The translations under genes were made by a program, and so were the position numbers. DNA of 64,000 bases from Candidatus Binatia bacterium (GTDB lineage Bacteria; Desulfobacterota; Binatia; HRBIN30), in contig JBBRSP010000008.1 of assembly GCA_038245295.1 (NCBI GenBank), positions 128,001-192,000 on the forward strand. The letters are read 5' to 3'. The notes under the pieces were generated by a model. The model saw only the letters and a program-made list of their open reading frames with translations. It searched no databases and had not been told where the DNA came from. Numbering within the stretch: position 1 is the stretch's first letter; each line of letters begins with the position of its first letter. Of the stretch, positions 21,037 through 38,129 are shown in pieces.

Positions 21037-21996
21037 CTACGGCTCCGGCCCCGCCTTCGCGAATGCGTCGAACAGGCGCGCGCGCACGGTGCTCACGAGC
21101 CGGTCGGAAGGTGGCGCCACAGTTGGTTCGGGCAGGAGCTGACCCAGGAACCGAAAGACGGCGCCAAGCAATTCGCCGCCCGCCGCCGCAACCCGGTCGC
21201 GCTGCGCCAATTGCCGGGCCTCTTGCTCGGCCCGTTGCCTTGCCGATTCGTCGATCGGGGCTTCGGGCTTGGCACCCAGCAAGACTTCCAGCCGCTGCTT
21301 CAGATCTTCAATGCTGCTGACTAGATCAACGGCGTCGACTTCGGAGTCGGCGTCCAGCGCGGCGAGTGCCAGATCGCGCTTGGCGGCAAGCGTTGCCAGT
21401 AGATTGTCTCCAATCGTTTCTTCGGTCACCAGCACGTAGACCTGCACCGGCCGCTTCTGGCCCATGCGGTGGGCGCGGCCGACTCGTTGCTCCAGCACGG
21501 CCGGATTCCACGGCAGATCGACGTTGATCACGGTGTTGGCCGCCTGCAGATTTAGGCCAACAGAACCGGCGTTGGTGGTGATGAAGAGTTTGCAGTTGGA
21601 GTTGGCTTGGAACTCGTTCACCAGTTGCTGTCGCTGCTTCTGCGGCACTGACCCGTCCAGCCGCACGTAACGCAGGCGTCGCGCGTCGAGCATGGGCTCG
21701 ATGAGATCCAGCATCGTTGTCCACTCCGAGAACAGGACCACCTTGCGGCCTTGCTCCTGGAACAAACGGTCGAGTAGGTCGTTCAAGTAACCGAGCCTGG
21801 TCGAATAGCCAGGCGCCTGTTTGTCGACGAGGTAAGTGCTGTTGGCCGCCATGCGGCACATCAACAATGCCTTCTTCAGGCGCACCCGCAGGCCGGCGCC
21901 ACAACCCTGATCATCTCGCTCGGCATTGTGAGCAAGCCGTTCTACCTGCTCATTATCGAGGTCGCCGTCGCGCTGCTCGCGCTGCAGGCGATTCAT
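21037..21996 (-). pseudogene. SNF2-family helicase C-terminal fragment
   Basis: KVVLFSEW, RLDGS, AGSVGLNLQAAN, DLPWNPA.LEQR.GRAHRMGQ; Walker A/DEAH lobe missing. Confidence 0.85.
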
Positions 21997-22214: not shown

Positions 22215-23423
22215 GTGATACCCGTTTCGATCGAAACCACGGCGCGAACACGGCAGGTTCATAAATCGTTTGCGCTCTTCGCGCTGGGCTTTCGCCCCTT
22301 TTTCCTGGCTGCCGCGCTCGCCGCGGTCGCTCTGGTTGCCCTCTGGGTCGCCGACTACGGCGGGGCAGTCTCGTTGCAGACGTATTACGGCACCGTCACC
22401 TGGCATGGCCACGAGATGGTTTTTGGCTATGCCGCTGCGGTGGTGGCGGGGTTCCTGCTCACGTCGGTGCGCAACTGGACCTCGATCGACACGCTGCGCG
22501 GCGGTTCGCTGGCGGCCCTCCTGACGCTCTGGATTGTCGGCCGCTTGGCGCCGTTTGCGTCGGGTACTGTGCCCGGGTGGCTCATCGCTGCGGTAGACGT
22601 CGCCTTCCTGCCGGTGCTAGCCGCGAGTCTATCCACACCGCTGCTGCGGCGTCGGCAATGGCGCAATCTTCCCTTCGTGCCAGTGCTGTTCCTCCTAGCG
22701 TTCGCGAACCTGCTCGTGCATCTAGACGTGCTCGGTGTCCTTCCGGGCCGTGCGACGACGGGCCTTTATCTCGGCGTCGACCTGATCGTGCTGCTGATCA
22801 CGATCATTGGCGGACGCGTGATTCCGTTCTTCACCGAGCGCGCACTGCCGGGTGCCAGGCCACGTGTTTGGAGATTGGTGGAGTGGGTATCCATTGCCAC
22901 GGTGGCAACGGTCGCCATTCTCCGCACCATGCCGCTAGCGCCGCAACTCACACTGTCGCTGGCGGCGGTCGCCGTACTCGCGCACGCGACGCGGTTGTGG
23001 GGTTGGTCCGATCGCCGCATGGGGTCTGTCCCGTTGCTCTGGATCCTCTACGTCGGCTACGCCTGGGTGGTCGTCGGCTTCGCCCTTGAGGGCCTTTCAG
23101 CAGTCGCAATGGTACGGCCGCAGCTGGCGCTGCATGCCTTAACCACTGGCGCGATCGGCACGATGACCCTCGGCATGATGGCTCGCGTTGCGCTCGGACA
23201 TACCGGTCGGCCGCTGCATGCCGCGCGGCCGCTGGTGGCAGCGTTCGTCCTGGTGACGGTTGCAGCTCTGCTGCGCGTCTTCGCTGCCTGGTGGCTGCCG
23301 GACCAATGGTATGTGTCGCTGATCGTTGCCTCTGGGGTGGCGTGGATCGCCGCCTTCGTCCTGTTCCTGGCGCTGTACGCGCCGATTCTGATAAGGCCAC
23401 GGACGGACGGGCTCGAGGGCTGA
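22215..23423 (+). CDS. nnrS: NnrS family NO-tolerance membrane protein
   Basis: LGFRPFFL, WHGHEMVFGY, GFLLTSV.NWT, IGGRVIPFFT, HALTTG, MMARVALGHTGR. Confidence 0.95.
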   Translation: MIPVSIETTARTRQVHKSFALFALGFRPFFLAAALAAVALVALWVADYGGAVSLQTYYGTVTWHGHEMVFGYAAAVVAGFLLTSVRNWTSIDTLRGGSLAALLTLWIVGRLAPFASGTVPGWLIAAVDVAFLPVLAASLSTPLLRRRQWRNLPFVPVLFLLAFANLLVHLDVLGVLPGRATTGLYLGVDLIVLLITIIGGRVIPFFTERALPGARPRVWRLVEWVSIATVATVAILRTMPLAPQLTLSLAAVAVLAHATRLWGWSDRRMGSVPLLWILYVGYAWVVVGFALEGLSAVAMVRPQLALHALTTGAIGTMTLGMMARVALGHTGRPLHAARPLVAAFVLVTVAALLRVFAAWWLPDQWYVSLIVASGVAWIAAFVLFLALYAPILIRPRTDGLEG

Positions 23424-23529
23424 TCAGCCGATGGCGCGCATGCCTGCGGCCAGCTCGTTGCGGTTACGGCGAGGGCGCGGTCACGCATAGGTGAGGTAGA
23501 ACTTCGGCGCCTTGTCTTTCGGGAAGACC

Positions 23530-24489
23530 TCACTCCGGGTTTCCCCAGTGATGTAATAGACGCTCCCTTAGTTTGCGGTGCCGTGGCAGGAAATATGCGA
23601 GCATCGCCGTCGCGGCTAGGATGTTCGCCACAAAGATGGTCCACCAGCCGAGTGATTCGACCAGCGCCTCGTCGATCAACATCACCACGCCGAAAAAGAA
23701 CACCTCGAAGCAGGTGAACAGAATGAAGGCGCCGAGCAGGAGTATCGGCTCTCGCTCGGCGACTGCCAGTAGAACGGCTGCCAGAATGCCGAAGATGATG
23801 AAGGCCGTTGCGTGAAGCACGGTATAGCCAAGGACCACAGCGGTCGAAATGTGCAGGGTCGCCGGGTCCCGTAAGCCCTGGAGGATGGCAGCTCCCAGCA
23901 AGGCTGGGGTGTACAATGGTCGATCAGTCGCAGTGTCGTACAGGACGAACCATACGGCCACCGTAGCCGCTCCGATGATTCCACCCACGACGCCTTCGCG
24001 GACGACCCCGGTCCACGGGCCAAGCAGCGCTCGCCCCAGGGCATGATGCCCGAAAAAGAAGTACCCGAGCATCGCGCCGCTTGCGAGTAGGTTGCCCACG
24101 AGAAGGCTCCACCACGAGATGTTCGCCATGAGCGTCGGCCCATGGAACATGACGAGAGCGATGGAGAAGACTTCGAACCCGCCGAAGAAGATGAAGAGCG
24201 CAATCACCAGCCCCGCCTCACGCTCCGCGGCGGCGATCAGCGCCGCCGCCGCAATGCCGAACAACGTGAAGGCGATTGCGTGCGCCACGCTGTATTGCAC
24301 TACAAGTGGCCACGTAATGACCGGTAGCTCGCTGCCTGAGGCCCCGTGGAAGAGTACGGCCGCAAGCAGCCCCGGCGTTTCAAACAGTCTTCCCCGGCTG
24401 GCATCAAATACCAGGAACCACAACGCCACCGCGGCCGCGCCGAGCAACCCGGCGATTATGCCGTCGCGCACGACCTCGCGTTTGCTCAT
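23530..24489 (-). CDS. Internally duplicated integral membrane protein (last gene of respiratory operon)
   Basis: Two homologous halves (VVR(D/E)G..GA..VA.WF..D...TP.LL; Y.V.H..AF; FEVF); ATGA overlap with ctaG. Confidence 0.75.
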   Translation of the reverse strand: MSKREVVRDGIIAGLLGAAAVALWFLVFDASRGRLFETPGLLAAVLFHGASGSELPVITWPLVVQYSVAHAIAFTLFGIAAAALIAAAEREAGLVIALFIFFGGFEVFSIALVMFHGPTLMANISWWSLLVGNLLASGAMLGYFFFGHHALGRALLGPWTGVVREGVVGGIIGAATVAVWFVLYDTATDRPLYTPALLGAAILQGLRDPATLHISTAVVLGYTVLHATAFIIFGILAAVLLAVAEREPILLLGAFILFTCFEVFFFGVVMLIDEALVESLGWWTIFVANILAATAMLAYFLPRHRKLRERLLHHWGNPE

Positions 24490-25289
24490 CTTGTGGTCAC
24501 CCGCGTCAACCCTACTACCGCGAGCGGCCGCCCTGCCAGCGGCTCGTCCCGGTCCTCGCGTTGCGCCCATCGGAAGAACATGATGGTGAACACACTCATG
24601 AAGTAGAGCCCGGCGCCGACCCACATCAGCAAGCCCCCCAAGACCTGATCAACGAGGGGAGTGAGCCCCCACGGGTGCGGACCCTCGAGATACCATGGAT
24701 AGATGACATCCGGCGCGAGCGTGATCGGCGCCGAGACGGCCGCCATCGGGATCAGGAGCAAAAAGAGGTAGAGAGTCTGCGCCGGATAGCCGAGACGTGG
24801 CAGCTCCGGCATCGGACTGAGCAACGGCCACCACATGATCGTGCCTGTCACCATGAGCAGCACGTGCATAGCGATGTGCACGTTTTCGTCGCGCACCATG
24901 CGCTCGAACACCGGCTGTGTATGGATGACGGCGAGAAACGCATTGTAGAGGACAAATGCCACCAATGGATACGTGATCATTCGAGCAAGGCGCTGGACCA
25001 CCGGCCACCGTAGGAGCGGCCGCAGCATCCATCCGGGGGTTCCCAGCAGCAGGAGTGGTGGCATCACGAGAGCGAGCAGCAGATGTTGCAACATGTGCGC
25101 GGTGAACATTCGGTCGTCGGCGAGCGCATCGACTGGTCCATTGAGCGCAAAGAACATCGTCGTCAGAGCGCCGACGAAGGAAGCGACCTGTCCAGCGCGC
25201 ACGCGCTGGTGTGCCAGGAACCACATCAGGGCATAACACGCCGCCAGGCCGAAGATTCCCGCGATCACGGTAGGGTGTAGATCCTCCAT
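24486..25289 (-). CDS. ctaG: Cytochrome c oxidase assembly factor, caa3-type CtaG
   Basis: FTAHMLQHLLL...PPLLLLG, DQVLGGLLMW. Confidence 0.9.
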   Translation of the reverse strand: MEDLHPTVIAGIFGLAACYALMWFLAHQRVRAGQVASFVGALTTMFFALNGPVDALADDRMFTAHMLQHLLLALVMPPLLLLGTPGWMLRPLLRWPVVQRLARMITYPLVAFVLYNAFLAVIHTQPVFERMVRDENVHIAMHVLLMVTGTIMWWPLLSPMPELPRLGYPAQTLYLFLLLIPMAAVSAPITLAPDVIYPWYLEGPHPWGLTPLVDQVLGGLLMWVGAGLYFMSVFTIMFFRWAQREDRDEPLAGRPLAVVGLTRVTTR

Positions 25290-25293
25290 CGGT

Positions 25294-25596
25294 TCACGTA
25301 CTCGCGCGGTAGAACGTTGCGAAGAGAAGGCTCAGCGAAAAGATCAGCACCGTCGCAAAGAACAGCAGGAACAGAAAGATGGCCGTGTACGTCCAACGGT
25401 CGAATTTGAGGTGCATGTAGAACATCACGACCAGCGCGAACTTGGCTGCGGAAAGCAGCAACAGCACGGGTAGCAGCGCCGGCTTGAGCGCCCGCACGTA
25501 AAAGACTGTCACCTCCATCGCCGTCAGCACCGTCAGAAAGACCGCGACGATCAAATAGGTCGCTGTTCCAGGCTGTCCGTGCGTCGCCTCGGTCAT
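25294..25596 (-). CDS. ctaF: Cytochrome c oxidase subunit IV
   Basis: Three TM helices, LTAMEV, AKFALVVMFYMHLKFD. Confidence 0.88.
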   Translation of the reverse strand: MTEATHGQPGTATYLIVAVFLTVLTAMEVTVFYVRALKPALLPVLLLLSAAKFALVVMFYMHLKFDRWTYTAIFLFLLFFATVLIFSLSLLFATFYRAST

Positions 25597-28043
25597 GCGC
25601 CCTTCACTCCCTGCAGCAGGTAGACCAAGGTAAAGATGACGATCCACACGATGTCGACGAAGTGCCAATAGAGCCCGCAGAGCTCAACCGACAGGCTGCG
25701 TTTCTGCGGCAGCTGGCCGGCCAGCGACGCGATTGCCAAGGTCACGAGCCACAGCACCCCGACCGTCACGTGCACGCCGTGAAACCCGACGAGCGTGTAG
25801 AACGTCTGGCTGAACAGGTTCGTCTGCAGCGCCAGGCCTTGGTGATAGAAGTGAGTGAACTCGTACACTTGGCCGAGCAGAAATATCACGCCGAGCCCGG
25901 CCGTTCCGAGCAACCAACGCCGACTCCAGCGCACGTCGCCGCGCTGCGTGGCGGCCAGAGCCAGGACCATCAGCAAACTGCTCATGAGCAGCACGAAGGT
26001 GCTCACAGACGTCAGGGGCACTTCGAGGATCTCGGCACCCGGGCCAGCAACGTTGTGTTCCTTATAGATGAGGTAGGTCGAGAGCAGCGACGCGAAGAAG
26101 ATCGACTCCGAACCGATGAACGCCCAGATGCCTATCTTGCGGTTGTCGAGTCCTGTCGACAAGACGCCCGCCACACCGGTGTGCTCGGCTTCCCCGAAGT
26201 TGGAGTATTCGAAGCTCATGCCGATGATGCTGAGCAGCACGACGATTGCGCCGATGACGGCGACCTCCACCCGGGTGATCGCACCCACCGCGGTCAGCAG
26301 GACACCGGCGGCTAACATGAGCGGAAAGATCGAGGGACCCGGCACGTGAATCGCCTCCGGGGTTGAGGCCTCCAAGGCGGGACGGTCTGCATCGGGGGCC
26401 ATGGACGGACGCGGTCGTCCATACTTGAGCGCCCAGAAGGGATCGCGTGCGCGCACGACCGGGATGCGGGCGAAGTTGCATGCCGGCGGCGGCGACGGGG
26501 TCCACCATTCCAGCGTGCGCGCGTCCCAGGGATCCGCACCGGCCGTGACGCGCCGTCGGAGGCTCATCAAGATGTTGATCAGCAGGATCGCCACCGACAG
26601 ACCAAGGATGAAAGCGCTGACCGTTGCGATCAGGTTCCACGTGTCCCACCCCATCCCGGGCGCGTACCGGTATATCCGTCGCGGCATGCCTTCGGCACCG
26701 AGGAAGTGCATCGGGAAGAACGTGCCGTTGAAGCCAATGATGGTGAGCCAGAAATGCAACTTGCCGAGCCGCTCGTTGAGCATATTGCCGGTGATTTTCG
26801 GCCACCAATAGTAGAGCCCCGAGAAGATCCCGAATGCAGAGCCGCCGAACAACACGTAGTGCAGGTGTGCTACGACAAAGTACGAATCCGTCTGCTGCAA
26901 ATCGATTGGGACGGCGGCGTGCATGATGCCGCTGAGGCCGCCGATGGTGAACTCGAAAATGAGACCGATGGAGAACAGGAACGCCGTCGTCAGACTCAAC
27001 GCGCCACCCCACATGGTCGCGATCCAGGTAAAGATCTTGATGCCCGTCGGAATCGCGATCAGCATCGAGGTCACGGCAAAGGCGCTGTCCGCTGCCGGCC
27101 CCATGCCGACCGCAAACATGTGATGACCCCACACGCCGTACGACAGGAACCCGATCAGCGCCGTCGAATAGGCCATCATCGGGTAGCCGTACAGGGGCTT
27201 GCGCGAGAAAACCGGAACTACCTCCGAGACAATCCCGAAGGCGGGCAGAGCCATGATGTAGACTTCTGGGTGCCCGAACAGCCAGAAGAGATGCTGCCAC
27301 AGCAGCGGTGTGGCGCCGGTCGTCGCGACGTAAAAGTGGGTGCCGTAAAACCGATCCATGAGCAGCAGAATCAGCGCGACGGTGAGCGCCGGGAAGGCCA
27401 GGAGAATAAGCACCACCGTCACCAGCATCGTCCATACGAACATCGGCATCCGCATGTAGGTCATGCCCGGCGCCCGCATGTTGACGATAGTGACGAGAAA
27501 GTTGAGGCCGGTCAGCATGGTCGAGACTCCGAGCACGAGCAGGCCGAGGACCCAGAAATCCATGTTGGTGCCGGGCGAGAAGTAGCGCTCCGTCAGATTG
27601 GCATAGGCAAACCATCCGGCGTTGGGCGCGCCGTTGAAGAAACAGCTCGCGTGCAGGAACACGGCACCGAAGAGGAACAGCCAGTAGCTGAGCGCGTTGA
27701 GGCGCGGGAAGGCCACGTCCCGTGCGCCGATGTGCAGCGGCAACACGAAGTTGGAGAAAAAGCCGACCTCCAGTGGCATCACCACCAGAAAGATCATCGT
27801 GGTGCCATGCATCGTGAACAGCTGGTTGTATACGCCGGCTGTGAGGAAGGTATTGTCTGGGTACGCGAGCTGGACGCGGATGAGCAACGCCTCGATGCCG
27901 CCGATGAGGAAGAAGGCGAGCGCGGTCACGCCGTACATGACCGCGATCCGCTTGTGGTCCACGGTGGCGATCCAACTCCACAGGCTACCGTGCAGGTAGT
28001 TACTCTCTTCTGCCATTTCCTCGATGCGTACTGCGGCTTGCAT
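25593..28043 (-). CDS. ctaD: Heme-copper oxidase subunit I fused to subunit III (A1 type)
   Basis: VDHKRI, TMHGTTM, GHPEVY, WGHHMF, PTGIKIF, AHLHY, then a subunit III domain (WAFIGSE, GFHGVHV, YWHFVD.VW). Confidence 0.95.
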   Translation of the reverse strand: MQAAVRIEEMAEESNYLHGSLWSWIATVDHKRIAVMYGVTALAFFLIGGIEALLIRVQLAYPDNTFLTAGVYNQLFTMHGTTMIFLVVMPLEVGFFSNFVLPLHIGARDVAFPRLNALSYWLFLFGAVFLHASCFFNGAPNAGWFAYANLTERYFSPGTNMDFWVLGLLVLGVSTMLTGLNFLVTIVNMRAPGMTYMRMPMFVWTMLVTVVLILLAFPALTVALILLLMDRFYGTHFYVATTGATPLLWQHLFWLFGHPEVYIMALPAFGIVSEVVPVFSRKPLYGYPMMAYSTALIGFLSYGVWGHHMFAVGMGPAADSAFAVTSMLIAIPTGIKIFTWIATMWGGALSLTTAFLFSIGLIFEFTIGGLSGIMHAAVPIDLQQTDSYFVVAHLHYVLFGGSAFGIFSGLYYWWPKITGNMLNERLGKLHFWLTIIGFNGTFFPMHFLGAEGMPRRIYRYAPGMGWDTWNLIATVSAFILGLSVAILLINILMSLRRRVTAGADPWDARTLEWWTPSPPPACNFARIPVVRARDPFWALKYGRPRPSMAPDADRPALEASTPEAIHVPGPSIFPLMLAAGVLLTAVGAITRVEVAVIGAIVVLLSIIGMSFEYSNFGEAEHTGVAGVLSTGLDNRKIGIWAFIGSESIFFASLLSTYLIYKEHNVAGPGAEILEVPLTSVSTFVLLMSSLLMVLALAATQRGDVRWSRRWLLGTAGLGVIFLLGQVYEFTHFYHQGLALQTNLFSQTFYTLVGFHGVHVTVGVLWLVTLAIASLAGQLPQKRSLSVELCGLYWHFVDIVWIVIFTLVYLLQGVKGA

Positions 28044-28051
28044 GACGTGTC

Positions 28052-29062
28052 CTATTTCAGACTCCCCAGGTACGCGACGAGCTGCGACACTTCCTCCGGC
28101 GAGAGGCCCAGTTTTGGCATCTGCGCACCTGGCTTGAGTGCTCCCGGATCGCGCAACCACCCTGCAAGGTTGTTGGGCGTGTTGTCCAGGATCCCGCCAG
28201 CCAGCGTGGTACGACCCGCAAAGTGCGTGAGGTCCGGGCCGACCTTCTGTGTCGATACCCCGTTGATCGTATGACACGTCACGCAGGCGCTCATCGCATA
28301 CAGCCGCGCGCCCGCTGAGACTGGGTCAGTTGCCTCCGCGGGGCGTCCAGGCACCGCTGCCGGTGCCGTCTGGTGTGTGCTCCAGGTGTCGAATTCCGCC
28401 GGCGTATCCACGAAGACCCGAAAACGCATGTTGGCGTGCGACAAGCCGCAGAACTCGGCGCACTGCCCAAGGTACACGCCCGGGACGCGTGGGATGAACG
28501 TGACGGTGTTGATGTGGCCGGGGATAACGTCGCGTTTGCCACCGAGTGCCGGGACCCAGAAGCTATGGATGATATCCGCTGATTGCAGCTGGATCTGCAC
28601 CGGTTGCCCCGCCGGCAAATGAATCTCGTTCGCCGTCCGGATCTCCAAGTCGGGATACTCGATCTGCCACCACCACTGGTGTGCCAAAACATTCACTATC
28701 AGCGCGTTGGCCGGTGCGACGGCCGGCTGGGTGCGAAACGTCGTGCGAACGGTCGGGATGGCGATTGCCAGCAGCACTAGCGCCGGGCCGACGGTCCAGG
28801 CCACTTCGAGCCCAAGAGACTCAGGGCTCGCCGGTGGTGTTTCGTGCGGCGCGCGCACCCGCGTCGAATAGCGGAAGATCGCCAGCAGCGTCAGCACCGT
28901 CACCAAGACGAGGATCAGGGTAGTCCACCCGATCACCTGCAGGTACAGGGTCTGCGTCCACTCCGCGAAGTCTGACTTCGGTGCGAAAGTGGTCATCGGC
29001 GGTGGCGCGGTCGAACAGCCGGCGAGCAGCCACAGGAGAATCAGGCCGAACGATTGTTTCAT
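28052..29062 (-). CDS. ctaC: Cytochrome c oxidase subunit II with C-terminal cytochrome c (caa3)
   Basis: Lipobox LAGC, HQWWW, DIIHSFW, CAEFCGLSHANM CuA motif, CVTCH heme motif. Has its own GGGAG RBS but is in frame with upstream actF. Confidence 0.93.
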   Translation of the reverse strand: MKQSFGLILLWLLAGCSTAPPPMTTFAPKSDFAEWTQTLYLQVIGWTTLILVLVTVLTLLAIFRYSTRVRAPHETPPASPESLGLEVAWTVGPALVLLAIAIPTVRTTFRTQPAVAPANALIVNVLAHQWWWQIEYPDLEIRTANEIHLPAGQPVQIQLQSADIIHSFWVPALGGKRDVIPGHINTVTFIPRVPGVYLGQCAEFCGLSHANMRFRVFVDTPAEFDTWSTHQTAPAAVPGRPAEATDPVSAGARLYAMSACVTCHTINGVSTQKVGPDLTHFAGRTTLAGGILDNTPNNLAGWLRDPGALKPGAQMPKLGLSPEEVSQLVAYLGSLK

Positions 29063-30205
29063 TGCTGAGCTCCCGCCACGGTTGCCATTGACAAGCCGCA
29101 ATCCGGGAAGCGTACAGAGTCCGAAGAGCCCGAAGAAGCCGGCGGAAATCAGCACCTCAACCCAGCCGAACGGAATTATGGTGGGCGACAGCGATGGCAC
29201 CACCAGCACGTAGCGCTCGATCCACATACCTATCAATCCGAGCGCGCAAACCGCGCCGAGAATTCTCGGAGTCCTTTTTGCTCTCTTGCCCAACAACGCA
29301 ATGAACGGGATCAGCCAGATCAGCAGCAACGCGATCCATGCAAGTACGCCCCACGGCAAGGCGTGAATGCGCCGTACCAAGAAGAACGTCTCTTCGGGAA
29401 TGTCGGCGTACCAGATCGGCAGGTACTGCGACCACAGCAAGTAGGCCCAGAATATCGAGAAGGCGAAGACTAACTTGCCGATGTCGTGCAAACTTGCGGA
29501 ATGTTCGGCGCTCTCGCCACGCGGCACTGGCCGCCAACCGACACTGGCCAACACGCCCATCGCCGCCAACGCGCTCCAGTAGGCGCCGGCGAAGAAGTAG
29601 GCGCCGAAAAGCGTGCTGTACCAAATCGGCGACAGCGACATCACGAGATCGAACGCGATCAGCGAGTAGACGATCGCGTAGATGATGATCACCGCCGGGG
29701 CGAGGCGCCGGAGAGTGGCGGGAGGCAGCTCGATGTCGGCCGCCGACTCTGCCCATTCCACGGCATCGGCGCGGCGCGAGGCGTACACGAACCACACGCT
29801 CAGCGCGGTCAGCAGCAAGAGTCCACCGCCGTCGCGCCCGAAGAGAAACGGGACGTTCAGCCACGCGACTTTTTGCGGCAGCGGATGCAGCACCCACGGG
29901 AAGATCAGCTGCTGGCCCGCGAGGAGGAGCCAGAAAAGGAGAAACCCTAGCGGCAGGAAGCCGGCGAAACTTTCGGCCAGCCGGTACACGCTCGCGCCGC
30001 CCCAGCGTGCTTGGGTCAGGTACAACGATGCGGATACCACGACGCCGCCTTGGGCGACACCGAGCCAGAAGAGCAGGTTTACGAGGAAGGCCTCCCAGGC
30101 GCGCAGCGACGCCCCACGCGTCAGCGCCACGCTGAAGGCGGCAACGCCGGTGATCGCAAGGACCACAAAGCCGCCGGTTGCGATGCGCCGCGACGAACGG
30201 GTCAT
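29063..30205 (-). CDS. actF: Alternative complex III subunit ActF (no stop codon before ctaC)
   Basis: FDLVMSLSP.WYSTLFG, HDIGKL.FAFSIFWAYL.WSQYL.IWYADIPEET. Confidence 0.88.
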
Positions 30206-30711
30206 TCCATGCCCAACCTTCCCTGCAGATGACGCAGGTACAGCACGATCTCCCAGCGCTCGTCCGCTGCCATGGCATCGCCATAGGCAGGCATCACGAT
30301 ACTGCCGTTGCGGATGGTGGCGTCGAGATACCCATCACTGCGCTCTGCCGGCTGCGCCGTCGTCAGGTCCGGCGGCGACACAATCATCTGAAAGGCAACC
30401 GGACCGTTTCCCTTGCCGGCGTCGCCATGACATGGCGCGCAGTGGGTCGCGAACAACGCTGCTCCAGAATGAAGGTGCGCAGCAGTCGGGGTGACGGGGT
30501 TGCGCAGACTGTCGTCGGCCTCCTCCCGTATCAGCGGTGGCTCCCCACCCTGCACGGGAAGCGTGCCCGGCGGCATGTTGCGCGGAGGGAGTGCGAGCGG
30601 TTGGACGGCCGGGCCGCGAAACATGTCGGTACTCCACGGAAAGGCAGTTGCCCGGTGCGCGCCAAGGAAGAGGAGAAGCACAACGAGCCTGAGCATCTGC
30701 TGGGCAGTCAT
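30202..30711 (-). CDS. actE: ACIII monoheme cytochrome c ActE
   Basis: DM..P...PPGTLP, NPV, CAPCHG..G.G.G, MPAYG...ERW.IV.Y; position in the operon. Confidence 0.85.
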   Translation of the reverse strand: MTAQQMLRLVVLLLFLGAHRATAFPWSTDMFRGPAVQPLALPPRNMPPGTLPVQGGEPPLIREEADDSLRNPVTPTAAHLHSGAALFATHCAPCHGDAGKGNGPVAFQMIVSPPDLTTAQPAERSDGYLDATIRNGSIVMPAYGDAMAADERWEIVLYLRHLQGRLGME

Positions 30712-30712
30712 T

Positions 30713-31258
30713 TCATCCCTCGCCTTGGTCCTCTCCGCGAGGGAGATTGGCCCCGAGGACCGTAACCCCTGTGGCTCCAGCAGCGAGCAGCAATATCTCG
30801 ACGCGCCCGCGTTCGCTGGCTGCGCACTCGATCACCACACCGAAGCGGTCGTTGCTGAAGTCCAGTTGATAGCCCGGCACCGGCTCGAGGCGCGGGAATC
30901 TGCCGTGGACCAGGAATCCGGCCACACCTGACAACGCCCCGAACAGGATCGTCAGCTCGAAGGCGATGACCACGAAGGGCGGGATCGAAACAATCGGCAT
31001 GCCGGCGGTCACGTGCGGATAGTCGGCCGACAACCCGATGGTAAGTGCAAAACCGCTGGCACAGCCGGCAATGGCACCGAACAACACCCAGCGCCGCACT
31101 GGGCTGTGGGCGGCATCCAGCGCTTCGAGTATCCGTTCGCTGGCAAATGGTGAGAAGACGCGCGGTTTGCGCAAGCCGGCGGCGCGGACGGCAACGATTC
31201 CGCGCGTGCAGGTCTCCTCGTCAGAAAAGAGACCGGTGAAGAGCAACGTCTCGCTCAT
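30713..31258 (-). CDS. actD: ACIII subunit ActD (DUF3341)
   Basis: FSPF, two TM helices, GMP..SIPPFVVIAFELTILFGA, FSNDRFG. Confidence 0.9.
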   Translation of the reverse strand: MSETLLFTGLFSDEETCTRGIVAVRAAGLRKPRVFSPFASERILEALDAAHSPVRRWVLFGAIAGCASGFALTIGLSADYPHVTAGMPIVSIPPFVVIAFELTILFGALSGVAGFLVHGRFPRLEPVPGYQLDFSNDRFGVVIECAASERGRVEILLLAAGATGVTVLGANLPRGEDQGEG

Positions 31259-31272
31259 GCCGTCCCCTGGCG

Positions 31273-32604
31273 TTACTGCGCCAGTGCCTGTTTCTGCCAC
31301 GCAATGCCCTCCTTCACCTCGGTCATCGACACGATAGGTAGGAACTTGGCGAACAGAGTGAACCACATCAGGAACCAGGCGAAGCTGGCCACCGTGATCG
31401 TAATCTCAACCCACGTGGGCTTGTAGAAAGCCCATTGCGACGGCATGAAATTGGTCGCCAGCGAGCCGGCGATGATGACGAAGCGCTCCGTCCACATGCC
31501 GATGTTGATGAAGATCGAAAGGATGAAGAGCCCACTCATGCTCCGCCGGACGCGTGGCGAGAACAGCACCAGCGGCACGACGCAGTTGCAAAAGACCATC
31601 AGCCAGAAGAGCGGCCCATACGGTCCCCAGTAGCGCATGTGGAACGCCATCTGCTCGAATGGGTTGGCGCTGTACCACGCGATGAACGCCTCGGTGACAT
31701 ACGAGTATGTCACCACCAGGGACATGAACAGGATGACCTTGGAGAGGTTGTCGAGATGCCACGGGGTAATCGCCTCTTCGAGCCCCATCAGCCGGCGCAG
31801 CGGAATGAGCAATGTGAGCACGAGGGCGCATCCCGAGAAGATCGCACCGGCAACGAAGTACGGCGCGAAAATGGTGCTGTGCCAGCCGGGCAGCTGCGTC
31901 ATGGCGAAGTCCCAGGAGACAACGCTGTGCACGGAGATCACCAGCGGCGTTGCCAGGCCGGCGAGCAACAGATAGGCCGCGGAGAAATGCCGCCATTGAT
32001 CGTCACTACCTTGCCAGCCGAGGGACAGCAGACGGTAGAACGTTTGTCGCCACCCGGTCGCGGCATCGCGCGCTGCTGCGACGTCGGGAATGAGACCCAT
32101 GAGCAGAAAGACCCAACTCACGATCAAGTAGGTGGAAACGGCGAAGGCGTCCCACACCAGAGGAGAACGGAAGTTGGGCTGCAGCCAGCGCTCGTTGGGA
32201 TACGGCATCAGCCAGTAGAAGAACCACGAACGGCCCAGATGGATGAGCGGGAAGAGGCCGGCCGTCAACACCGCAAAGCCAGTCATGGTTTCCGCGGCGC
32301 GGTACACCGGTGTGCGCCAGCGCGTACGGAACAGTAACAGGATAGCCGAAATCAACGTGCCCGAGTGCGCGATCCCTACCCAAAACACGAAGTTGGTGAT
32401 GTAGATCGCCCACATGTTCGGCTGGCGCAGGCCGGTGACGCCGAGACCGGCGTAGATCTGGTACGTCCAAGTCGTGATTCCTATGGCGACGACCGCTGCG
32501 AGAAAGCCCACCCAGAGCCAGTACGTGCGGCCGGGAGGCTTCAATGTCTGCAGCACCCAGCGGTTGACATCGCCGTATCGCAGCTCATCCGTCGCCATGC
32601 TCAC
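31273..32604 (-). CDS. actC: ACIII quinol-oxidising membrane subunit ActC (NrfD/PsrC family)
   Basis: NFVFWVGIAHSGTLISAIL, HLGR.W, FRSPLVWD, SVHSVVSWDFA, GWHSTIFAPYFVAGAIFSG. Confidence 0.95.
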   Translation of the reverse strand: MSMATDELRYGDVNRWVLQTLKPPGRTYWLWVGFLAAVVAIGITTWTYQIYAGLGVTGLRQPNMWAIYITNFVFWVGIAHSGTLISAILLLFRTRWRTPVYRAAETMTGFAVLTAGLFPLIHLGRSWFFYWLMPYPNERWLQPNFRSPLVWDAFAVSTYLIVSWVFLLMGLIPDVAAARDAATGWRQTFYRLLSLGWQGSDDQWRHFSAAYLLLAGLATPLVISVHSVVSWDFAMTQLPGWHSTIFAPYFVAGAIFSGCALVLTLLIPLRRLMGLEEAITPWHLDNLSKVILFMSLVVTYSYVTEAFIAWYSANPFEQMAFHMRYWGPYGPLFWLMVFCNCVVPLVLFSPRVRRSMSGLFILSIFINIGMWTERFVIIAGSLATNFMPSQWAFYKPTWVEITITVASFAWFLMWFTLFAKFLPIVSMTEVKEGIAWQKQALAQ

Positions 32605-35498
32605 GACTCCTCCCGCCGTCGGTAGATGTCGCGTAGGTATACGATGGCCGGTTGCGTGTTCAGGTCTTCCAGTGCCCGGTAGCCACGCAGGCCGTTGTCG
32701 GCACGGCGCTGCATCATCGCGCTATCGGTATCCTTCATGTCGCCGAACGTGATGGCCTGTGCTGGACATGCCTGCGCGCACGCCGGTACGATCTCCCCGT
32801 CGCGCACCGGACGGCCGTCGGCCTTGGCGTCCATCTCCGTGGCACGGATACGCTGAATGCAGAACGTACATTTCTCCATGACGCCGGCGCCGCGTGCCGT
32901 CACGTCCGGATTGAGCTGCAAGTGCGACGGCGCCGGCCATTCGGGCTTGAACCAGTTGAAGCGGCGTACCTTGTACGGGCAGTTGTTGTTGCAATAGCGG
33001 GTGCCGATGCAGCGGTTGTACACCTGCGCGTTTAACCCCTCGTCGGTGTGCGACGACGCGTAAACCGGGCAGACAGACTCGCACGGTGCATGATCGCACT
33101 GCTGGCAGAGCATCGGCATCATGTAGAGTTGTGGCGCATCTGGTTCCGTGGGAACGAAACGCTCGATGCGAATCCACGACATGATGTGCCCGCGCGCCAC
33201 CTCTTGCTTGCCGACCACGGGCACGTTGTTCTCCGCGTAGCAGGCGGCGACGCAGGCACTGCAGCCGGTGCAGGTGTTGAGATCGATGGTCATCCCCCAC
33301 TGATGATTGGGATACAGGTGCTTGGCGCGCATCTCATACGGCTCCGGCACTTGCGGACCGTGCTCAGGCGGCGCGACGCCGCGTCGCAAGTCGTCGAGGC
33401 TGATCGCCTCGACGATCGGTCGTCCGAGCATGTTGGGCAAACCGAGGGGGCCAACCAGGGTCCGTTGCCCGCCGGTCTTGCGGACTTCCACTTCAACGAC
33501 ATGCGTACCGAACGGCAGCACCTGCCATGGATTGGCGCCACGATCCGCGGCGTAACGGCCATATGCACTGTGGCCCTGACCGAAGGGGACGCTCAGCGTA
33601 TCAGCTTGCACGTGCGCGCTGAGATGCGCCGGCACTTCGATGCGAGCCTGCGAAGAACGAATCTCCAGGATGTCCCCTTCGGCAACGCCGAGATGTTGCG
33701 CGGTCGTCGGGTGAATGTCCGCCCAGGTGTCCCACACCAACTGCGCCACCGGCTCCGGGATTTCCTGCAGCCACGGCTTGTCGGCGCCGCGGCCGTCGTA
33801 GAGAAAGATGTGGGGAAAAGCGGCGAGCGTCAGGCCGGAGCGTTCGTTTGGCAGATCGAGCGCTGCGGCCAACGCCTCGGAACGCAGCGCGACCGTCGCC
33901 ACGGGTGCGGGAGTGAAGACGCCGCCCGTCTCACGCGCCTGGCGCCAGAAGTCATCAAAGCTCCTGGCTTCACGTTTCTGCGTGTGCAGTTCCCGCCATG
34001 TCGTCTCGACAGCGGCCTGCGTATTCTCCGACGACAGCGCGTCGGCGGAAACACCGGCAGCATGTACGGACGCCAGCAGGATGTCACCGAGTGGCAGCGT
34101 CGGAAACACCGGCTGCATCGCTGGCTGGCCTAGCAGGGTCACGCCGGCGCGAGGCGCGGCGTCGCTCCAAGTTTCAAGTGAGTGATGGCACGGCAAGAGC
34201 AGGTGTGCGAGTGCGGCAGTCTCGTCCGGAACACCGTCGGACCAGACGACGAAGGGCACCCGGCTGACCGCATCGTTGAAGCCGGGCAACGTGAACGCCG
34301 GATTTGCGCCGTGAACGACGAGCACGTCGATGGCCCCCCTGCGCATGTCATCCAAAAGGGCTTTAACCATTTCATGTCGACTCGATGGTGCGGGCGGTGC
34401 GCCGTCCAGGAACCGCACCGTCTTGCCGAGATTGCCGGTGGCGGCGTTCAGGATTGAGGTCACCACGTGCGTCGCCCCATCCGCCGTCCCGGCCAGTGCC
34501 ACCGCGCCGGTTGCTCTTCCAAACGACTCCGCCATGCTGTGGATCCTCGCGGCGGGCACACCCGTCCGTTGCGACACCGCGGCGGGCTCGTACCCGTCAG
34601 TGAAGTGTTTCAAGCGATCGGTATCGATATCCGCTCTTGCAAGACCGCCATGTGCGACCGCGTGTAATACCCCAAGCGCGACGAGGGCCTCGGCGCCGGG
34701 GCGCACGGATATCCACTCATCGCACTTGGCCGCCGTGAGACCGAAACGTGGCCCGACGTAAACGGCATGCCCCAGCATGATGCCATTGCTGCCGAGGCGA
34801 GGCTTGCGAAAGGCCGCGTACTGGCGCGTCAGCTCAACCGGCGAGCGCCACGTCTCCAGAAAGTCGGCACCGAACGACAGCACGACCTCCGCTGCATCGA
34901 GTTGATAGACCGGCAGGTCGCCGCGGCCGAAGCACAGCTCCGCGGCGGCCCGCGCGGCATCTTCGTCAAGCGCTTCATAGTGCAAGCGGCGGTTTGATCC
35001 CCACACCTGCAGCCAGCGCTCAACGATCCGATCGAGTGTCGGGCCTGACGAGGGACCGATGAAAGCCACCCGGTTTGTGCCGGCCGCAGCGGCGGCGTGC
35101 AGGCGCTGCGCAAGCGTCTGCAGACCGACCTCCCACGTGATTGGCGAGAGCGCGCCATCGCTGCCGCGCTGCTGTGGGGTCACCAGGCGGTCAGGATTGT
35201 AAAGTCCTTGCAATGCGGCTTGCCCACGGGCGCACAATGCTCCGGCACTGATCGGGTCCTGTGGATTGCCTTCCAGCTTGATGACCCGTCCTTCACGGAC
35301 ACGCGCCACGACGCCGCATCCGGCTGGGCACTCCCTGCACATGGTGGCGTAGAAGTTAGGGACGCCCGGGATGATGTTCTCGTCGGGAATGACGTAGGGC
35401 ATCAGCTCTCGCGTCGGCGGCTCCGTGCAGCCGGTAGCCGCCGCACTGGTCACCGCCACAATTTTCAAGAACGATCGTCTGGATAGTTCGCCCGGCAT
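32601..35498 (-). CDS. actB: ACIII subunit ActB (molybdopterin-oxidoreductase-like domain plus Fe-S domain)
   Basis: Tat motif SRRSFLK; N-terminal CxxCxxxC-x27-C; C-terminal CTGCSAC, CQQC..APC..VC, CIGTRYC..NC, EKCTFC, PACAQAC. Confidence 0.93.
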   Translation of the reverse strand: MPGELSRRSFLKIVAVTSAAATGCTEPPTRELMPYVIPDENIIPGVPNFYATMCRECPAGCGVVARVREGRVIKLEGNPQDPISAGALCARGQAALQGLYNPDRLVTPQQRGSDGALSPITWEVGLQTLAQRLHAAAAAGTNRVAFIGPSSGPTLDRIVERWLQVWGSNRRLHYEALDEDAARAAAELCFGRGDLPVYQLDAAEVVLSFGADFLETWRSPVELTRQYAAFRKPRLGSNGIMLGHAVYVGPRFGLTAAKCDEWISVRPGAEALVALGVLHAVAHGGLARADIDTDRLKHFTDGYEPAAVSQRTGVPAARIHSMAESFGRATGAVALAGTADGATHVVTSILNAATGNLGKTVRFLDGAPPAPSSRHEMVKALLDDMRRGAIDVLVVHGANPAFTLPGFNDAVSRVPFVVWSDGVPDETAALAHLLLPCHHSLETWSDAAPRAGVTLLGQPAMQPVFPTLPLGDILLASVHAAGVSADALSSENTQAAVETTWRELHTQKREARSFDDFWRQARETGGVFTPAPVATVALRSEALAAALDLPNERSGLTLAAFPHIFLYDGRGADKPWLQEIPEPVAQLVWDTWADIHPTTAQHLGVAEGDILEIRSSQARIEVPAHLSAHVQADTLSVPFGQGHSAYGRYAADRGANPWQVLPFGTHVVEVEVRKTGGQRTLVGPLGLPNMLGRPIVEAISLDDLRRGVAPPEHGPQVPEPYEMRAKHLYPNHQWGMTIDLNTCTGCSACVAACYAENNVPVVGKQEVARGHIMSWIRIERFVPTEPDAPQLYMMPMLCQQCDHAPCESVCPVYASSHTDEGLNAQVYNRCIGTRYCNNNCPYKVRRFNWFKPEWPAPSHLQLNPDVTARGAGVMEKCTFCIQRIRATEMDAKADGRPVRDGEIVPACAQACPAQAITFGDMKDTDSAMMQRRADNGLRGYRALEDLNTQPAIVYLRDIYRRREES

Positions 35499-35508
35499 GC
35501 GTACCTCA

Positions 35509-36027
35509 TCAATAGTGACAGATCGAACAGTCCTTGCTCACGTGGCGCTCGGTGTGACACGAGATGCAAAAGCCCATGTTGATGTCGTGGACGGGGACGA
35601 CGCGGTCCATCGTCTCCACCGGCCCGTGACACTCCTGGCACGCGACACCGGCGAGGATGTGCGGCCGATGTGCGAAGCGTACGAAGTCGGGCAGCGTGTA
35701 AACGCGGTTCCACACGATCTCGCCTGGTGGCTGCTTCGTATCGGTCCACGGCTGGGTCACGGCCGCGAGCACCGGCTGCTCACCACCCACCTTCATGTGG
35801 CAACCGAGACAGCGCTGCACAGATGGCACCCCGGCCGTCTGTGATCGGCGTGCGGACGCATGGCAATACTGGCAAGGAATCTTGCGTACCCCGGCATGGA
35901 CTCGATGGCTGAACGGGATCGGCTGAACGACGTCGCGGCTTGGCGACCACGGATGCTGGGAAAACATCGCCACCCCAGCCCCTACCAGAAACAGGAACAG
36001 CGTGATCGACAGGACGACGCGATTCAC
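35509..36027 (-). CDS. actA: ACIII pentaheme cytochrome c ActA
   Basis: One TM anchor, QPIPFSH, five CxxCH motifs (CQYCH, CLGCH, CQECH, CISCH, CSICH), LPDFVRF.H; GTGA overlap with the upstream gene. Confidence 0.92.
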   Translation of the reverse strand: MNRVVLSITLFLFLVGAGVAMFSQHPWSPSRDVVQPIPFSHRVHAGVRKIPCQYCHASARRSQTAGVPSVQRCLGCHMKVGGEQPVLAAVTQPWTDTKQPPGEIVWNRVYTLPDFVRFAHRPHILAGVACQECHGPVETMDRVVPVHDINMGFCISCHTERHVSKDCSICHY

Positions 36028-36521
36028 GGCGGCGTCTTTTGGGCCGCCGTGGGCGGACAATCAGGGTGCAAAAGCATCTGCGCGCTCGACGCGGCGTCGA
36101 GCCGCACGCCATCCGCAGTCTTGCCATTGGAATGCAACGTGTACGCCAGAACGTTCCAGTACTGCGCGCTCTCGAGGCTCGCCGGTTGATCGGCGGGCAT
36201 GGTCGCCGAAACATAGTCGTAGACGTCCTTGACCGTGCCGAAGTCATGTTGCCGGATCTTCTGGAAGAGACGCGGTTTGCAGGGGAGTGCACTGGGGCCG
36301 ATCAACTCTGGCGCTCGAAGGCCCTTGAACGAGTCGTCTTTGCCTTCGCCGTGATCTCCGTGGCAGCGGGCGCATTGGTGCTTGTAGATGTTCTCACCGC
36401 CGCGCGCCTGGTTGTCGGTGAACGCCCACACGTTGTTGGTTGTGGCGAACAGGATCACACTGGCGGTAACCACTACGCGTGCGCCGTATTGTTGGAGAGG
36501 TGAATGGCCTGAACCTCCCAT
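36024..36521 (-). CDS. Periplasmic monoheme cytochrome c
   Basis: Signal-like N-terminus, CARCHG, AP.LIG, MPADQP.SL; start uncertain. Confidence 0.85.
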   Translation of the reverse strand: MGGSGHSPLQQYGARVVVTASVILFATTNNVWAFTDNQARGGENIYKHQCARCHGDHGEGKDDSFKGLRAPELIGPSALPCKPRLFQKIRQHDFGTVKDVYDYVSATMPADQPASLESAQYWNVLAYTLHSNGKTADGVRLDAASSAQMLLHPDCPPTAAQKTPP

Positions 36522-36605
36522 CGGAGACCGTCCGCCACAATTGTCGAACACTGGGGCCCTCATCGAATGAGGGTTGCACGTCTCTGGATCGGTGCGAGTC
36601 CGCTT

Positions 36606-36623
36606 CTTTGCGCTGGCGCAAAC
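36606..36623. promoter_or_regulatory. NnrR/Crp-Fnr-type binding box upstream of the ACIII-caa3 operon
   Basis: cTTTGCG-CTGG-CGCAAAc palindrome, 14-bp core 36608-36621, fitting the TTGCG-N4-CGCAA NnrR-type consensus. Confidence 0.8.
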
Positions 36624-36718
36624 AAGCACCTCCACTGACCGGGCGAGCGGTCTCCAAAGTGAGCAACACCGGAACGCGCCCGGTGCAGCGAACCGAAGTC
36701 GCTCGCGCAGCGCCGCGA

Positions 36719-37489
36719 CTAATTCCGTGCCGCGTCGCATACCGGCCACTCCGTGCGGCTTCCCGGATCATCGGCAATAGCCGACAGCCCCTGAGCGTGC
36801 AGGATAGTCACTCGCTGGCGCCCAATGTCGACGAGTCCATGGCGTTTCCAAGCGCGCAAAACTCGGCAGACCGTGTATAGCGTCGTGCCGGTCATCTCGG
36901 CCAGATCCTGATGCGAGAGGGGCATGTCGATCAACAGGCCCGCTTCCGTCTTCCAACCCGCCTCCGTCGCCAGACGCATCAGCGCGTGCGCTACCCGGCG
37001 CCCTACGGGCTCCGTGGCCAGCTCGCGATAGCAGTGCTGTAGCTCTCGCATCCGCCTGCTCTGCGCGTACAGTAGGTTGATGGGAATCTGAGGAAACGAG
37101 ATCATGAGCTCGTGCATTGTCTTCCCACTCCAGACGAACGCTTGACACCAACGCACAGTCTGAGCGGACACTGGATGTACTTGATCTTCTGCAAACGGCG
37201 TCGCGCCGAACAACTCTCCGGGGCCGACGAATTGCAGCAGCACCCGATGGCGCTGCGGAGTCGTCTCGGAAAGTTTCAGCCGCCCTCGGTTCAACACGAA
37301 CACTTCGTCAGCCGCCGAGCCCTGCTCAAAGAAGAAGGCTCCGGTGTCGACCTCGCGCAGTTGCGCGGCGTCGGCGACGGCGGCGAGCTCATTCGGCTTG
37401 AGATTGCGAGCCAGTCCGGTTACGCGAAGGAGAGCGATAGCGTGAGAGGTCTCAATCATGTGAGGCATTCCCAGATCTTTTGTTCCCAT
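36719..37489 (-). CDS. Crp/Fnr family regulator, NnrR-like
   Basis: cNMP-binding-like domain; HTH SHQDLAEMTGTTLYTVCR resembles NnrR (..AEMTGTTLHTVSR); no FNR Cys cluster. Confidence 0.85.
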   Translation of the reverse strand: MGTKDLGMPHMIETSHAIALLRVTGLARNLKPNELAAVADAAQLREVDTGAFFFEQGSAADEVFVLNRGRLKLSETTPQRHRVLLQFVGPGELFGATPFAEDQVHPVSAQTVRWCQAFVWSGKTMHELMISFPQIPINLLYAQSRRMRELQHCYRELATEPVGRRVAHALMRLATEAGWKTEAGLLIDMPLSHQDLAEMTGTTLYTVCRVLRAWKRHGLVDIGRQRVTILHAQGLSAIADDPGSRTEWPVCDAARN

Positions 37490-37604: not shown

Positions 37605-38036
37605 TCAGTTGAGAAGGGTGGCGTCGAGGGTAATGTCGGCCTTAAGAAGCTTGGAAACCGGACAGCCTACTTTGGCCATTGCAGTGAGCTTTTCGAACGT
37701 TGCCTGATCAGCGCCCGGAATTCTGGCCTTCAAAGTCAGATGCACGGCGGTTATCGAATACCCCTCACTGACCTCCTCGAGTGTCACCTGCGCCGAAGTG
37801 TCCAGATGCTCGGCCGTGAGCTTAGCTTCGCTGAGAGCCAAGGTGAGCGCCATCGTGAAGCAGCTAGCGTGGGCGGCGGCGATCAGCTCCTCAGGATTGC
37901 TGCCTCGCTGGCCCTCGAAACGGCTGGCAAAACCATAGGGATAGCCTTTCAGCGCGCCACTCTCCGTGGAAATCGTGCCCTTGCCGTCCTTGGTTCCACC
38001 CTGCCAGGCAGCCGACCCTTTTCTCTTAATCTTCAT
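37605..38036 (-). CDS. osmC: OsmC peroxiredoxin
   Basis: SRFEG..GSNPEELIAAAHASCF, CPVSK. Confidence 0.92.
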   Translation of the reverse strand: MKIKRKGSAAWQGGTKDGKGTISTESGALKGYPYGFASRFEGQRGSNPEELIAAAHASCFTMALTLALSEAKLTAEHLDTSAQVTLEEVSEGYSITAVHLTLKARIPGADQATFEKLTAMAKVGCPVSKLLKADITLDATLLN

Positions 38037-38129
38037 CTCTGTTCTCCTTCGCTGCGGGGGGTCGTTTCCGATCCGCCTTCTGATTAATCGAGTCGTCCCC
38101 GCGGGGATCGCGATTGGTCCAAACCGTTG

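Follow-up and report, generated by a model that had tools for sequence, protein, structure and literature searches.

What does a regulator of the NnrR type do in front of an operon for oxygen respiration? This question is raised by a 64,000-nucleotide stretch of DNA, referred to here as the window (contig JBBRSP010000008.1, positions 128,001 to 192,000 of the forward strand), from the Candidatus Binatia bacterium of assembly GCA_038245295.1, whose genome (G000) is 96.6% complete. Between positions 22215 and 37489, the window carries a Crp/Fnr-type regulator gene, a palindrome, an operon for an alternative complex III (ACIII) and a caa3-type oxidase, and an nnrS gene that converges on the far end of the operon. 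A sequence-only reading had joined all of these into one circuit responding to nitric oxide (NO) or low O2. The evidence presented below makes a link between regulator, palindrome, and operon likely, whereas nnrS does not hold as their partner.

Conservation of the box between regulator and operon

The perfect palindrome claimed for the space between the regulator and the first operon gene is present as TTTGCG-CTGG-CGCAAA at positions 36607 to 36622, 97 nt past the stop codon of the regulator gene and 44 nt before the start codon of a cytochrome c gene. It fits the NnrR consensus ctTTGcgnnnncgCAAag (ctTTGcg-N4-cgCAAag) given in the available text of PMC1274295. A position weight matrix (PWM) was built from 14 sites of the related genomes G244, G238, G242, and G229, which themselves score 19.4 to 26.3 bits; with this matrix, the box is the top site in the 6.6 Mb of G000, a ranking that is partly circular because resemblance to the 14-mer of the box had guided the choice of training sites. 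Taken alone, the palindrome was rejected as evidence, since its frequency is at chance level: perfect 16-mers over 52 genomes number 28 versus 24 for the control (about 0.5 per genome), and the window, with three matches at one mismatch or fewer versus 5.17 expected, is not enriched. Exact 14-mers occur 28 times in G000. These frequencies would suit an explanation in which the palindrome matches by chance and its neighbor, the regulator, is unrelated; against it speaks the position of the box. The gap between box and start codon of the leading cytochrome c gene, as assigned by ourselves, is 44 nt in G000, 45 nt in G238, 46 nt in G242, and 47 nt in G244, i.e., it stays within 3 nt in four genomes (one family of close kin, not independent of each other), with the arms kept and the spacers and flanks differing. 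Not the palindrome itself but its conserved position in these relatives exceeds chance, and because of this conservation the chance explanation is largely refuted and has a very low probability. The regulator of G244 has four of the genome's five perfect 16-mers in the surrounding 30 kb. A scan for sigma-70 promoters returned one site versus 3.1 expected.

The arrangement recurs in relatives. In the order sample (52 genomes, G000 being counted in the tallies of operon and regulator), the ActF type of the window operon occurs in three genomes and the regulator in seven, and all three operon genomes have regulator, box, cytochrome c gene, and act genes in this order. Specifically, G238 and G244 carry an additional universal stress protein (USP) gene between regulator and box, and in G242 the same head precedes a largely deleted operon. 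Regulator paralogs in G243 and G189 lack a box in the stretches fetched. A total of 80 related loci were collected, the closest of which come mostly, by title, from Binatia or delta-proteobacterial metagenome-assembled genomes; 24 with at least 53% ActF identity and the common act-cta order formed the close set. Within this set the regulator is present only in locus L018 (held by G206, which shares the same coordinates as G244), and solely the genome of L018 among the 24 encodes it. Consistently, among the close loci whose upstream DNA is available (20), L018 scores 26.3 bits, followed by L031 with 15.7 bits and the rest with at most 11.6 bits, so that only the regulator-bearing locus falls within the training range. 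In the class sample, two families have the ActF type in nearly all genomes (21 of 24 in one, 24 of 25 in the other, a tally that takes in the unpublished row G087) and the regulator in none of them. Likewise, the regulator was found in none of 400 other genomes of a phylum-wide sample; among 31 genomes whose ACIII loci are distant, a single one matched the regulator, and a metagenome scan with the regulator gave five distant loci, none of them usable. This patchy distribution across Binatia agrees with the portability that had been proposed for the operon. As to co-occurrence, regulator, box, and operon recur together in kin, nnrS fails as their partner (see below), and Binatia operons elsewhere do without the regulator. 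The conserved position in kin, together with the lack of any training-range site where the regulator is absent, which also speaks against a chance match, supports the link of regulator, box, and operon, and we consider this link likely. With similar assurance, as far as the sequences allow, the regulator is predicted to bind the box, which is centered about 51 to 54 nt before the start codon, and, at this close-in and class II-like distance, to activate the operon.

Identity of the regulator

The gene directly upstream of the operon (positions 36719 to 37459, minus strand, with a further in-frame ATG at 37489) encodes a Crp/Fnr protein of 246 residues with PF00027 and PF13545 domains. Its earlier description as NnrR-like is borne out by 35 to 41% identity to alphaproteobacterial NnrR-type proteins and by the trees. 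The recognition helix reads GTTLYTVCR, compared with GTTLHTVSR in alphaproteobacterial NnrR-type proteins. The best annotated matches are alphaproteobacterial and 34 to 47% identical, FixK being only 24% identical, and DNR of P. aeruginosa matches with only 39 bits. The best plasmid matches include an S. meliloti gene in the order nnrS-nirK-nirV-nnrR, for which we assume the name nnrR from the nnrS-nirK-nirV context. Of 1005 regulator homologs, 120 were listed, and 7 of these bear the JGI name "nitrogen oxide reductase regulator"; no NCBIfam model named NnrR was among the matches, those of the S. meliloti protein included.

Two trees were calculated, a quick one (tree 1) and a second one from which most database homologs and two rows with long branches were left out (tree 2), both without Dnr, HcpR, and Fnr references. 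A broad NnrR-like clade takes in the regulator and leaves out the FixK and CRP-type rows, with a Shimodaira-Hasegawa-like approximate likelihood ratio test (SH-aLRT) value of 91 in tree 1 and a support of 91/95 in tree 2. The regulator itself is found inside a separate subclade of 14 rows (support 100/99, tree 2), which has a conserved W-C motif and is apart from the characterized alphaproteobacterial NnrR proteins. Membership in the NnrR-like clade thus stood up to phylogeny, and a position among the characterized alphaproteobacterial NnrR proteins did not. With the NnrR regulons of alphaproteobacterial denitrifiers, as described in the available parts of PMC1274295 and PMC6710368, the locus shares, besides the sequence identity given above, a nearly identical recognition helix, GTTL[YH]TV[CS]R, and the box consensus; in the latter source, NnrR of B. 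diazoefficiens, too, governs a cytochrome c electron carrier. Unlike these regulators, the Binatia protein forms its own subclade, its putative targets are ACIII-caa3, USP, superoxide dismutase (SOD)/type II NADH dehydrogenase (NDH-2), nuo, and zwf genes instead of nirK and nor, and nnrS and a qNor-like gene are unboxed in G000. The locus thus appears to work like an NnrR circuit, yet outside the characterized alphaproteobacterial group and with targets that are not denitrification genes.

Composition of the operon

Assignments by Pfam and NCBIfam, with scans by hidden Markov models (HMMs) spanning 18.5 to 46 kb of the window, confirm the claimed order and strand of the operon: the Crp/Fnr gene is followed on the minus strand by genes for a monoheme cytochrome c (positions 36024 to 36563; PF13442, one CxxCH), the pentaheme cytochrome c ActA (35509 to 36027; five CxxCH, PF14522), ActB with an N-terminal CxxCxxxC...C (FS0-type) motif (32601 to 35498; 466 to 470 bits to 6F0K_B and 6LOD_B), the NrfD-family membrane subunit ActC (31273 to 32598; PF03916), ActD (30713 to 31258; PF11821, 122 bits), the monoheme cytochrome c ActE (30202 to 30711; one CxxCH), ActF in frame into CtaC with its CuA and cytochrome c domain (28052 to 30205; TIGR02866 above the cutoff), CtaD, a fusion of subunits I and III of an A1-type oxygen reductase (25593 to 28043; TIGR02891, 707 bits versus a cutoff of 671), subunit IV or CtaF (25294 to 25596; PF03626), the caa3 assembly factor CtaG (24486 to 25289; PF09678), and a membrane protein of no known family (23530 to 24489; no Pfam match). 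With actABCDEF in one cluster, a pentaheme ActA, and a monoheme ActE, the first part qualifies as ACIII. All reading frames and ligands of the operon are intact. Subunit I contains the motifs FGHPEVY, DVAFPRLN, and PTGIK, which we take to be A1, D-channel, and K-channel motifs, and has the His ligands and the D- and K-channel residues; subunit II carries heme c in a cytochrome c domain at its C-terminus, along with the CuA ligands. Judged by its sequence, the operon encodes a complete ACIII and a caa3 oxidase of the A1 type in which neither metal ligands nor channel residues are lost.

The unassigned membrane protein has an internal repeat, a homolog after ctaG in 16 of the 24 close loci, and relatives in unnamed Atlas clusters of Methylomirabilota, Gemmatimonadota, and Binatota; it is a candidate assembly factor or subunit. 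Ten related operons (L017, L026-L030, L033-L035, and L040) have no match for the leading cytochrome c or actE, and their actD-actF gap is too short for actE; they apparently represent an ActE-less ACIII-caa3 variant.

In one respect the earlier account of the genes needs correction: actF and ctaC are not separate genes in the window but a single open reading frame encoding 717 residues, with no stop in between. The fusion results from one extra base relative to G238, where the genes are separate, and contigs of the X1 run, which may be the source sample, cover both the fusion and the nnrS junction without differences. Within the fused frame, the start codon of ctaC (ATG at 29062) is preserved, and so are a ribosome-binding-like sequence and its lipobox (lipoprotein-type signal). 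The idea of a conserved tether was rejected, as the genes are separate in all 24 related loci; the fusion is probably recent and neutral. It could also be counted, together with the loss of most of the operon in G242, among the signs of an ancestral circuit that is decaying in the lineage of G000, with a drifting regulator, an eroding island around it, and an operon that is weakly controlled or silent. Further signs would be the long end branch of the regulator (0.69 to 0.73 versus about 0.1 for its orthologs), its identity of 59 to 61% to orthologs that are 72% identical to one another, a gap not seen for the Act and Cta genes, and the loss of the USP gene between regulator and box, with gene fragments at 43.5 to 44.4 kb and a USP remnant at about 43.5 kb. 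However, the box in G000 is perfect and top-ranked, and the frames and ligands of the operon are intact. Moreover, changes of the regulator recur elsewhere: P0045, a database sequence 84% identical over the C-terminal half, has the same H183 and C198 changes in the helix-turn-helix, and an NnrR-type protein encoded next to nirK likewise shows His in the column of Tyr95. Decay is, on balance, unlikely.

Relation to known enzymes

The solved structures closest to subunit I are 7RH6/6ADQ (575 bits), 6KOC (560 bits), 2YEV (483 bits), and 1M56 (421 bits), for which the housekeeping subunit I of G000 scores 434, 404, 443, and 405 bits, respectively; 7RH6/6ADQ, 6KOC, and 1M56 are presumably from Mycobacterium, Bacillus, and Rhodobacter. 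The mycobacterial bcc-aa3 supercomplex thus contains the solved subunit I nearest to that of the window (575 bits versus 421 bits for R. sphaeroides), and the Thermus caa3 oxidase resembles the window oxidase in its fusion of subunits I and III. Unlike in the mycobacterial complex, the electron donor would be ACIII, not bcc. According to the available portions of the respective reports, mycobacterial bcc-aa3 resists and consumes NO (PMC7697965), and Thermus caa3 degrades NO anaerobically (PMC9266656). The likeness to the mycobacterial subunit I motivates, without demonstrating, the notion of an NO-resistant window oxidase.

Of 21 close loci, 20 have the four-cysteine FS0-type motif of ActB (window positions 35300 to 35360), as do five remoter ones, four titled Ignavibacteria and one Bacteroidetes (loci concerned: L013-L040, L124, L049, L057, L082, L083, and L092). 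The motif is absent from 6F0K_B, 6LOD_B, and the housekeeping ActB of G000, and it may bind a fifth Fe-S cluster. As far as the accessible sources go, ActB and QrcB are without a molybdenum cofactor (PMC6303296), domain B1 of ActB from Rhodothermus marinus has no cofactor (PMC5928083), and the adjacency of ACIII and oxidase genes is well known (PMC5928083). The R. marinus ACIII-caa3, in the same partial account, resembles the window operon in having actABCDEF and then oxidase genes, a pentaheme ActA, a monoheme ActE, and an ActB homologous to that of the window over its length. In contrast to R. marinus, whose B1 is cofactor-free, the window ActB has the FS0-type motif, the oxidase is A1-type with the I+III fusion and CtaG, an extra cytochrome c gene leads the operon, and the operon has a regulator of its own besides being the second copy in its genome. 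For Binatota, ACIII and complex IV have been reported in all genomes (PMC8262859); unlike the window genome, the available text of that account mentions neither two operon types nor a regulator. An NO-induced ACIII-caa3 supercomplex that would resist NO and consume it in turnover, thereby providing backup respiration and an NO sink in Binatia without nitric oxide reductase (Nor), and whose ActB would hold a fifth Fe-S cluster, is a speculative combination to which we give little credence.

Other respiratory genes of the genome

G000 has six genes of the heme-copper family. A second ACIII-oxidase cluster with an A2-type motif lies, unboxed, on the same contig as the window (C8:212805-224618), with which the window operon shares 37% identity in ActB, 51% in ActC, and 43% in subunit I. 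In view of this second ACIII-A2 oxidase set, the window operon is accessory. The remaining heme-copper genes resemble cbb3, ba3, aa3, and qNor, labels that rest on lengths and motifs instead of HMM assignments. In agreement with the sequence-only reading, no nir or nor gene is among the gene calls of the window, HMM scans having covered the 18.5- to 46-kb part.

Probable position of nnrS outside the regulon

The nnrS gene (positions 22215 to 23423, plus strand; PF05940, 380 bits) converges on the far end of the operon as claimed; its membership in the circuit was not upheld. Its upstream region scores -4.8 bits, versus 19.4 to 26.3 bits for the training sites, and NnrS matches were found in none of the 80 related loci, not even in the 20 close ones whose downstream sequence extends over 10 kb or more. 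Orthologs with 75 to 78% identity occur in four other genomes, three of which carry a regulator homolog (hypergeometric value 0.004, the kin not being independent), and the G243 ortholog follows an aconitase gene like that of the island. Together with the adjacency of nnrS, which is real in the assembly, these last observations favor the full version of the earlier proposal, a single NO module in which nnrS would be co-regulated with regulator, box, and operon. Opposed to it are the absence of NnrS from the close loci, the lack of a box not only at nnrS but also before its four close orthologs (at best 10.1 bits in the fetched loci), and the absence of a close nnrS ortholog from G238, G242, and G244; this version is accordingly improbable. 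The gene is best read as a like-themed neighbor outside the regulon and probably arrived separately. On its other side, nnrS is bordered by a C-terminal SNF2 helicase fragment (positions 21037 to 21996).

G000 has three nnrS genes. One of them follows directly behind a different Crp-type regulator on contig C13 (G000:C13:117000-133000), a region that also has an operon of the molybdopterin/Fe-S type and, in divergent orientation, a hemerythrin-like gene, labels other than Crp and NnrS being by eye. This region may be the main nitrogen-oxide circuit of G000, which would hold a candidate NO circuit in addition to the window locus.

Other boxed genes and the island

In kin, the box also precedes genes for USP, SOD followed by NDH-2, glucose-6-phosphate dehydrogenase (G6PDH; zwf), and a protein with a cyclic nucleotide (cNMP) domain, as well as the nuo operon of G229, from which the same regulator is divergently oriented (L126, G229:C53:1-12000; complex I). 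In the G238 island, a box lies between SOD and a NirK-like two-domain copper protein (L124:12295-13269), which presumably has the NirK-type copper and catalytic residues. Of the NnrR targets nirK, nor, and nnrS, only this single NirK-like gene is thus represented among the boxed genes. Since the boxed genes of kin are those for USP, SOD/NDH-2, nuo, and zwf and only once a NirK-like one, the locus reads as an island for respiratory stress, not as a regulon for denitrification.

The G244 island contains in addition aconitase, pyruvate dehydrogenase (PDH), electron transfer flavoprotein (ETF), glutathione S-transferase (GST), and DUF488 genes, and its counterparts of five window genes (40.2 to 46 kb) are 48 to 77% identical. 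According to Pfam/NCBIfam and gene calls, the rest of the window island (positions 37605 to 46033) comprises osmC, cupredoxin, DUF4142, and nucleotidyltransferase genes, genes for a FixJ-like regulator and a hybrid kinase, gene fragments, and cupin and PAS protein genes. Two fragments within positions 43480 to 44353 have no Pfam match and resemble, in what we take to be their identity, a broken glucoamylase. A second exact 14-mer, missed by the sequence-only reading, is located at positions 45427 to 45440 between the divergent cupin gene (PF07883, below the cutoff) and PAS-domain gene (PF08448) and is the third-ranked PWM site of G000. The second-ranked one (23.2 bits; G000:C58:3910-3927) lies upstream of a transporter-like gene, presumably related to the Kup potassium transporter.

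Signal and function of the circuit

What signal would such a circuit answer? In our proposal, the island is devoted to respiratory stress, and an activator of the NnrR clade, encoded by the island itself, controls an accessory chain from quinol to O2. The operon would add a proton-pumping route beside the housekeeping one, in concert with the genes boxed alike in kin (SOD, NDH-2, complex I, and G6PDH). A trigger by NO or nitrosative stress, with the operon supplementing respiration or making it more robust while the housekeeping chain is poisoned by NO, appears to us about as probable as all other options combined.

In favor of NO are the fit of the box to the NnrR consensus, the S. meliloti gene in its nnrS-nirK-nirV-nnrR context, the JGI names of 7 homologs, the NirK-like gene beside a box in G238, and the regulator homologs in three of the four other genomes with a close nnrS ortholog. 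Further support comes from a phylum sampled on account of a Solibacter genome, which we take to be Acidobacteriota. Regulator matches occur there in 12 of 401 genomes; of 13 matches, 12 regions (L174-L185) were examined. A box lies near the regulator in 9 of these 12 regions, and a Ric-type, DUF1858, or NnrS-family neighbor is found in 9 of the 12 (27 of 133 called proteins scanned). Ric and DUF1858 proteins have a role in NO stress. YtfE and NnrS protect Fe-S proteins, as stated in the available text of PMC11526790. These neighbors tie the wider regulator clade to NO stress and make NO the likeliest signal. The regulators of L174-L185 with the same box also adjoin hemerythrin genes. On a Chelatococcus plasmid, an NnrR-type regulator lies beside aox and nirK, so that NnrR-clade control of O2 respiration likely has parallels. 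Low O2, the other inducer proposed earlier, is a poor fit: the oxidase is of the A1 type, whose members have a low O2 affinity, and the cbb3-like and ba3-like oxidases of G000 are unboxed.

Several observations weigh against our proposal, in addition to the partial circularity of the PWM ranking and the kinship of the four genomes. The subclade of the regulator contains no characterized protein, and in one of the two trees the C13 regulator, a long branch, fell into the broad NnrR clade, whose support is 91/95. At 84 conserved columns the window regulator has 15 deviations, compared with a median of 4 for 109 homologs and 1 to 3 for G238, G242, and G244. Its changes include Y95H at a position that is Tyr in G238, G242, and G244 and in 94% of the 109 homologs; residue 95 probably corresponds, as mapped via Tyr92 of S. 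meliloti and not by an R. sphaeroides alignment, to Tyr93, which the available text of PMC8510549 cites as needed for R. sphaeroides NnrR activity. In B. diazoefficiens, TTGCG-N4-CGCAA precedes nnrR, a direct FixK2 target (PMC6710368, in the portion available); such boxes are therefore not exclusive to NO sensors. In G000, the NirK search gave nothing above the cutoff, the NirS search gave only weak partial cytochrome d1 matches, and the PWM found no box at the qNor-like gene, just as at the window nnrS. The NirK-like protein of G238 scores 134 bits versus the TIGR02376 cutoff of 296; Ric and DUF1858 are absent among the Binatia island genes scanned; and G244 has the circuit yet no Nor-like, no NirK-like, and no strong nnrS match. 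Finally, most other heme-copper oxidases assayed are NO inhibited, as reported in the accessible part of PMC9266656.

Some of these points lead to an explanation in which the wiring is real and the signal of the subclade has changed to O2 shifts or redox/oxidative stress, making the island a kit for restarting respiration for which NO is irrelevant. The genes missing from G244 would suit it, as would the distinct subclade with its W-C motif, the boxed genes of kin (USP, SOD-NDH-2, nuoA onward, zwf, and the cNMP-domain gene), the aconitase, PDH, ETF, and GST genes in the same island, and the FixJ-like regulator and hybrid kinase. It is, however, at odds with the NO-stress genes next to related regulators of Acidobacteriota and Alphaproteobacteria, and an A1 oxidase would be an odd choice for micro-oxia while the cbb3-like and ba3-like oxidases are unboxed. 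We regard a changed signal as rather doubtful, though it deserves more weight than decay of the circuit.

The sequence-only reading had not recognized its pairing as described, and we, too, found neither the combination of an NnrR-type regulator with ACIII nor a published regulator for any ACIII operon, in a search that left most subscription papers outside. The conserved activator site offers a testable handle on ACIII regulation. NnrR-clade control would be extended from denitrification to aerobic respiration, and this outside the Proteobacteria. If NO is indeed the signal and the oxidase tolerates it, common soil and sediment bacteria would have a route of NO removal that is free of Nor; if, on the other hand, the signal has changed, the circuit would be a case of effector switching with retained DNA specificity.

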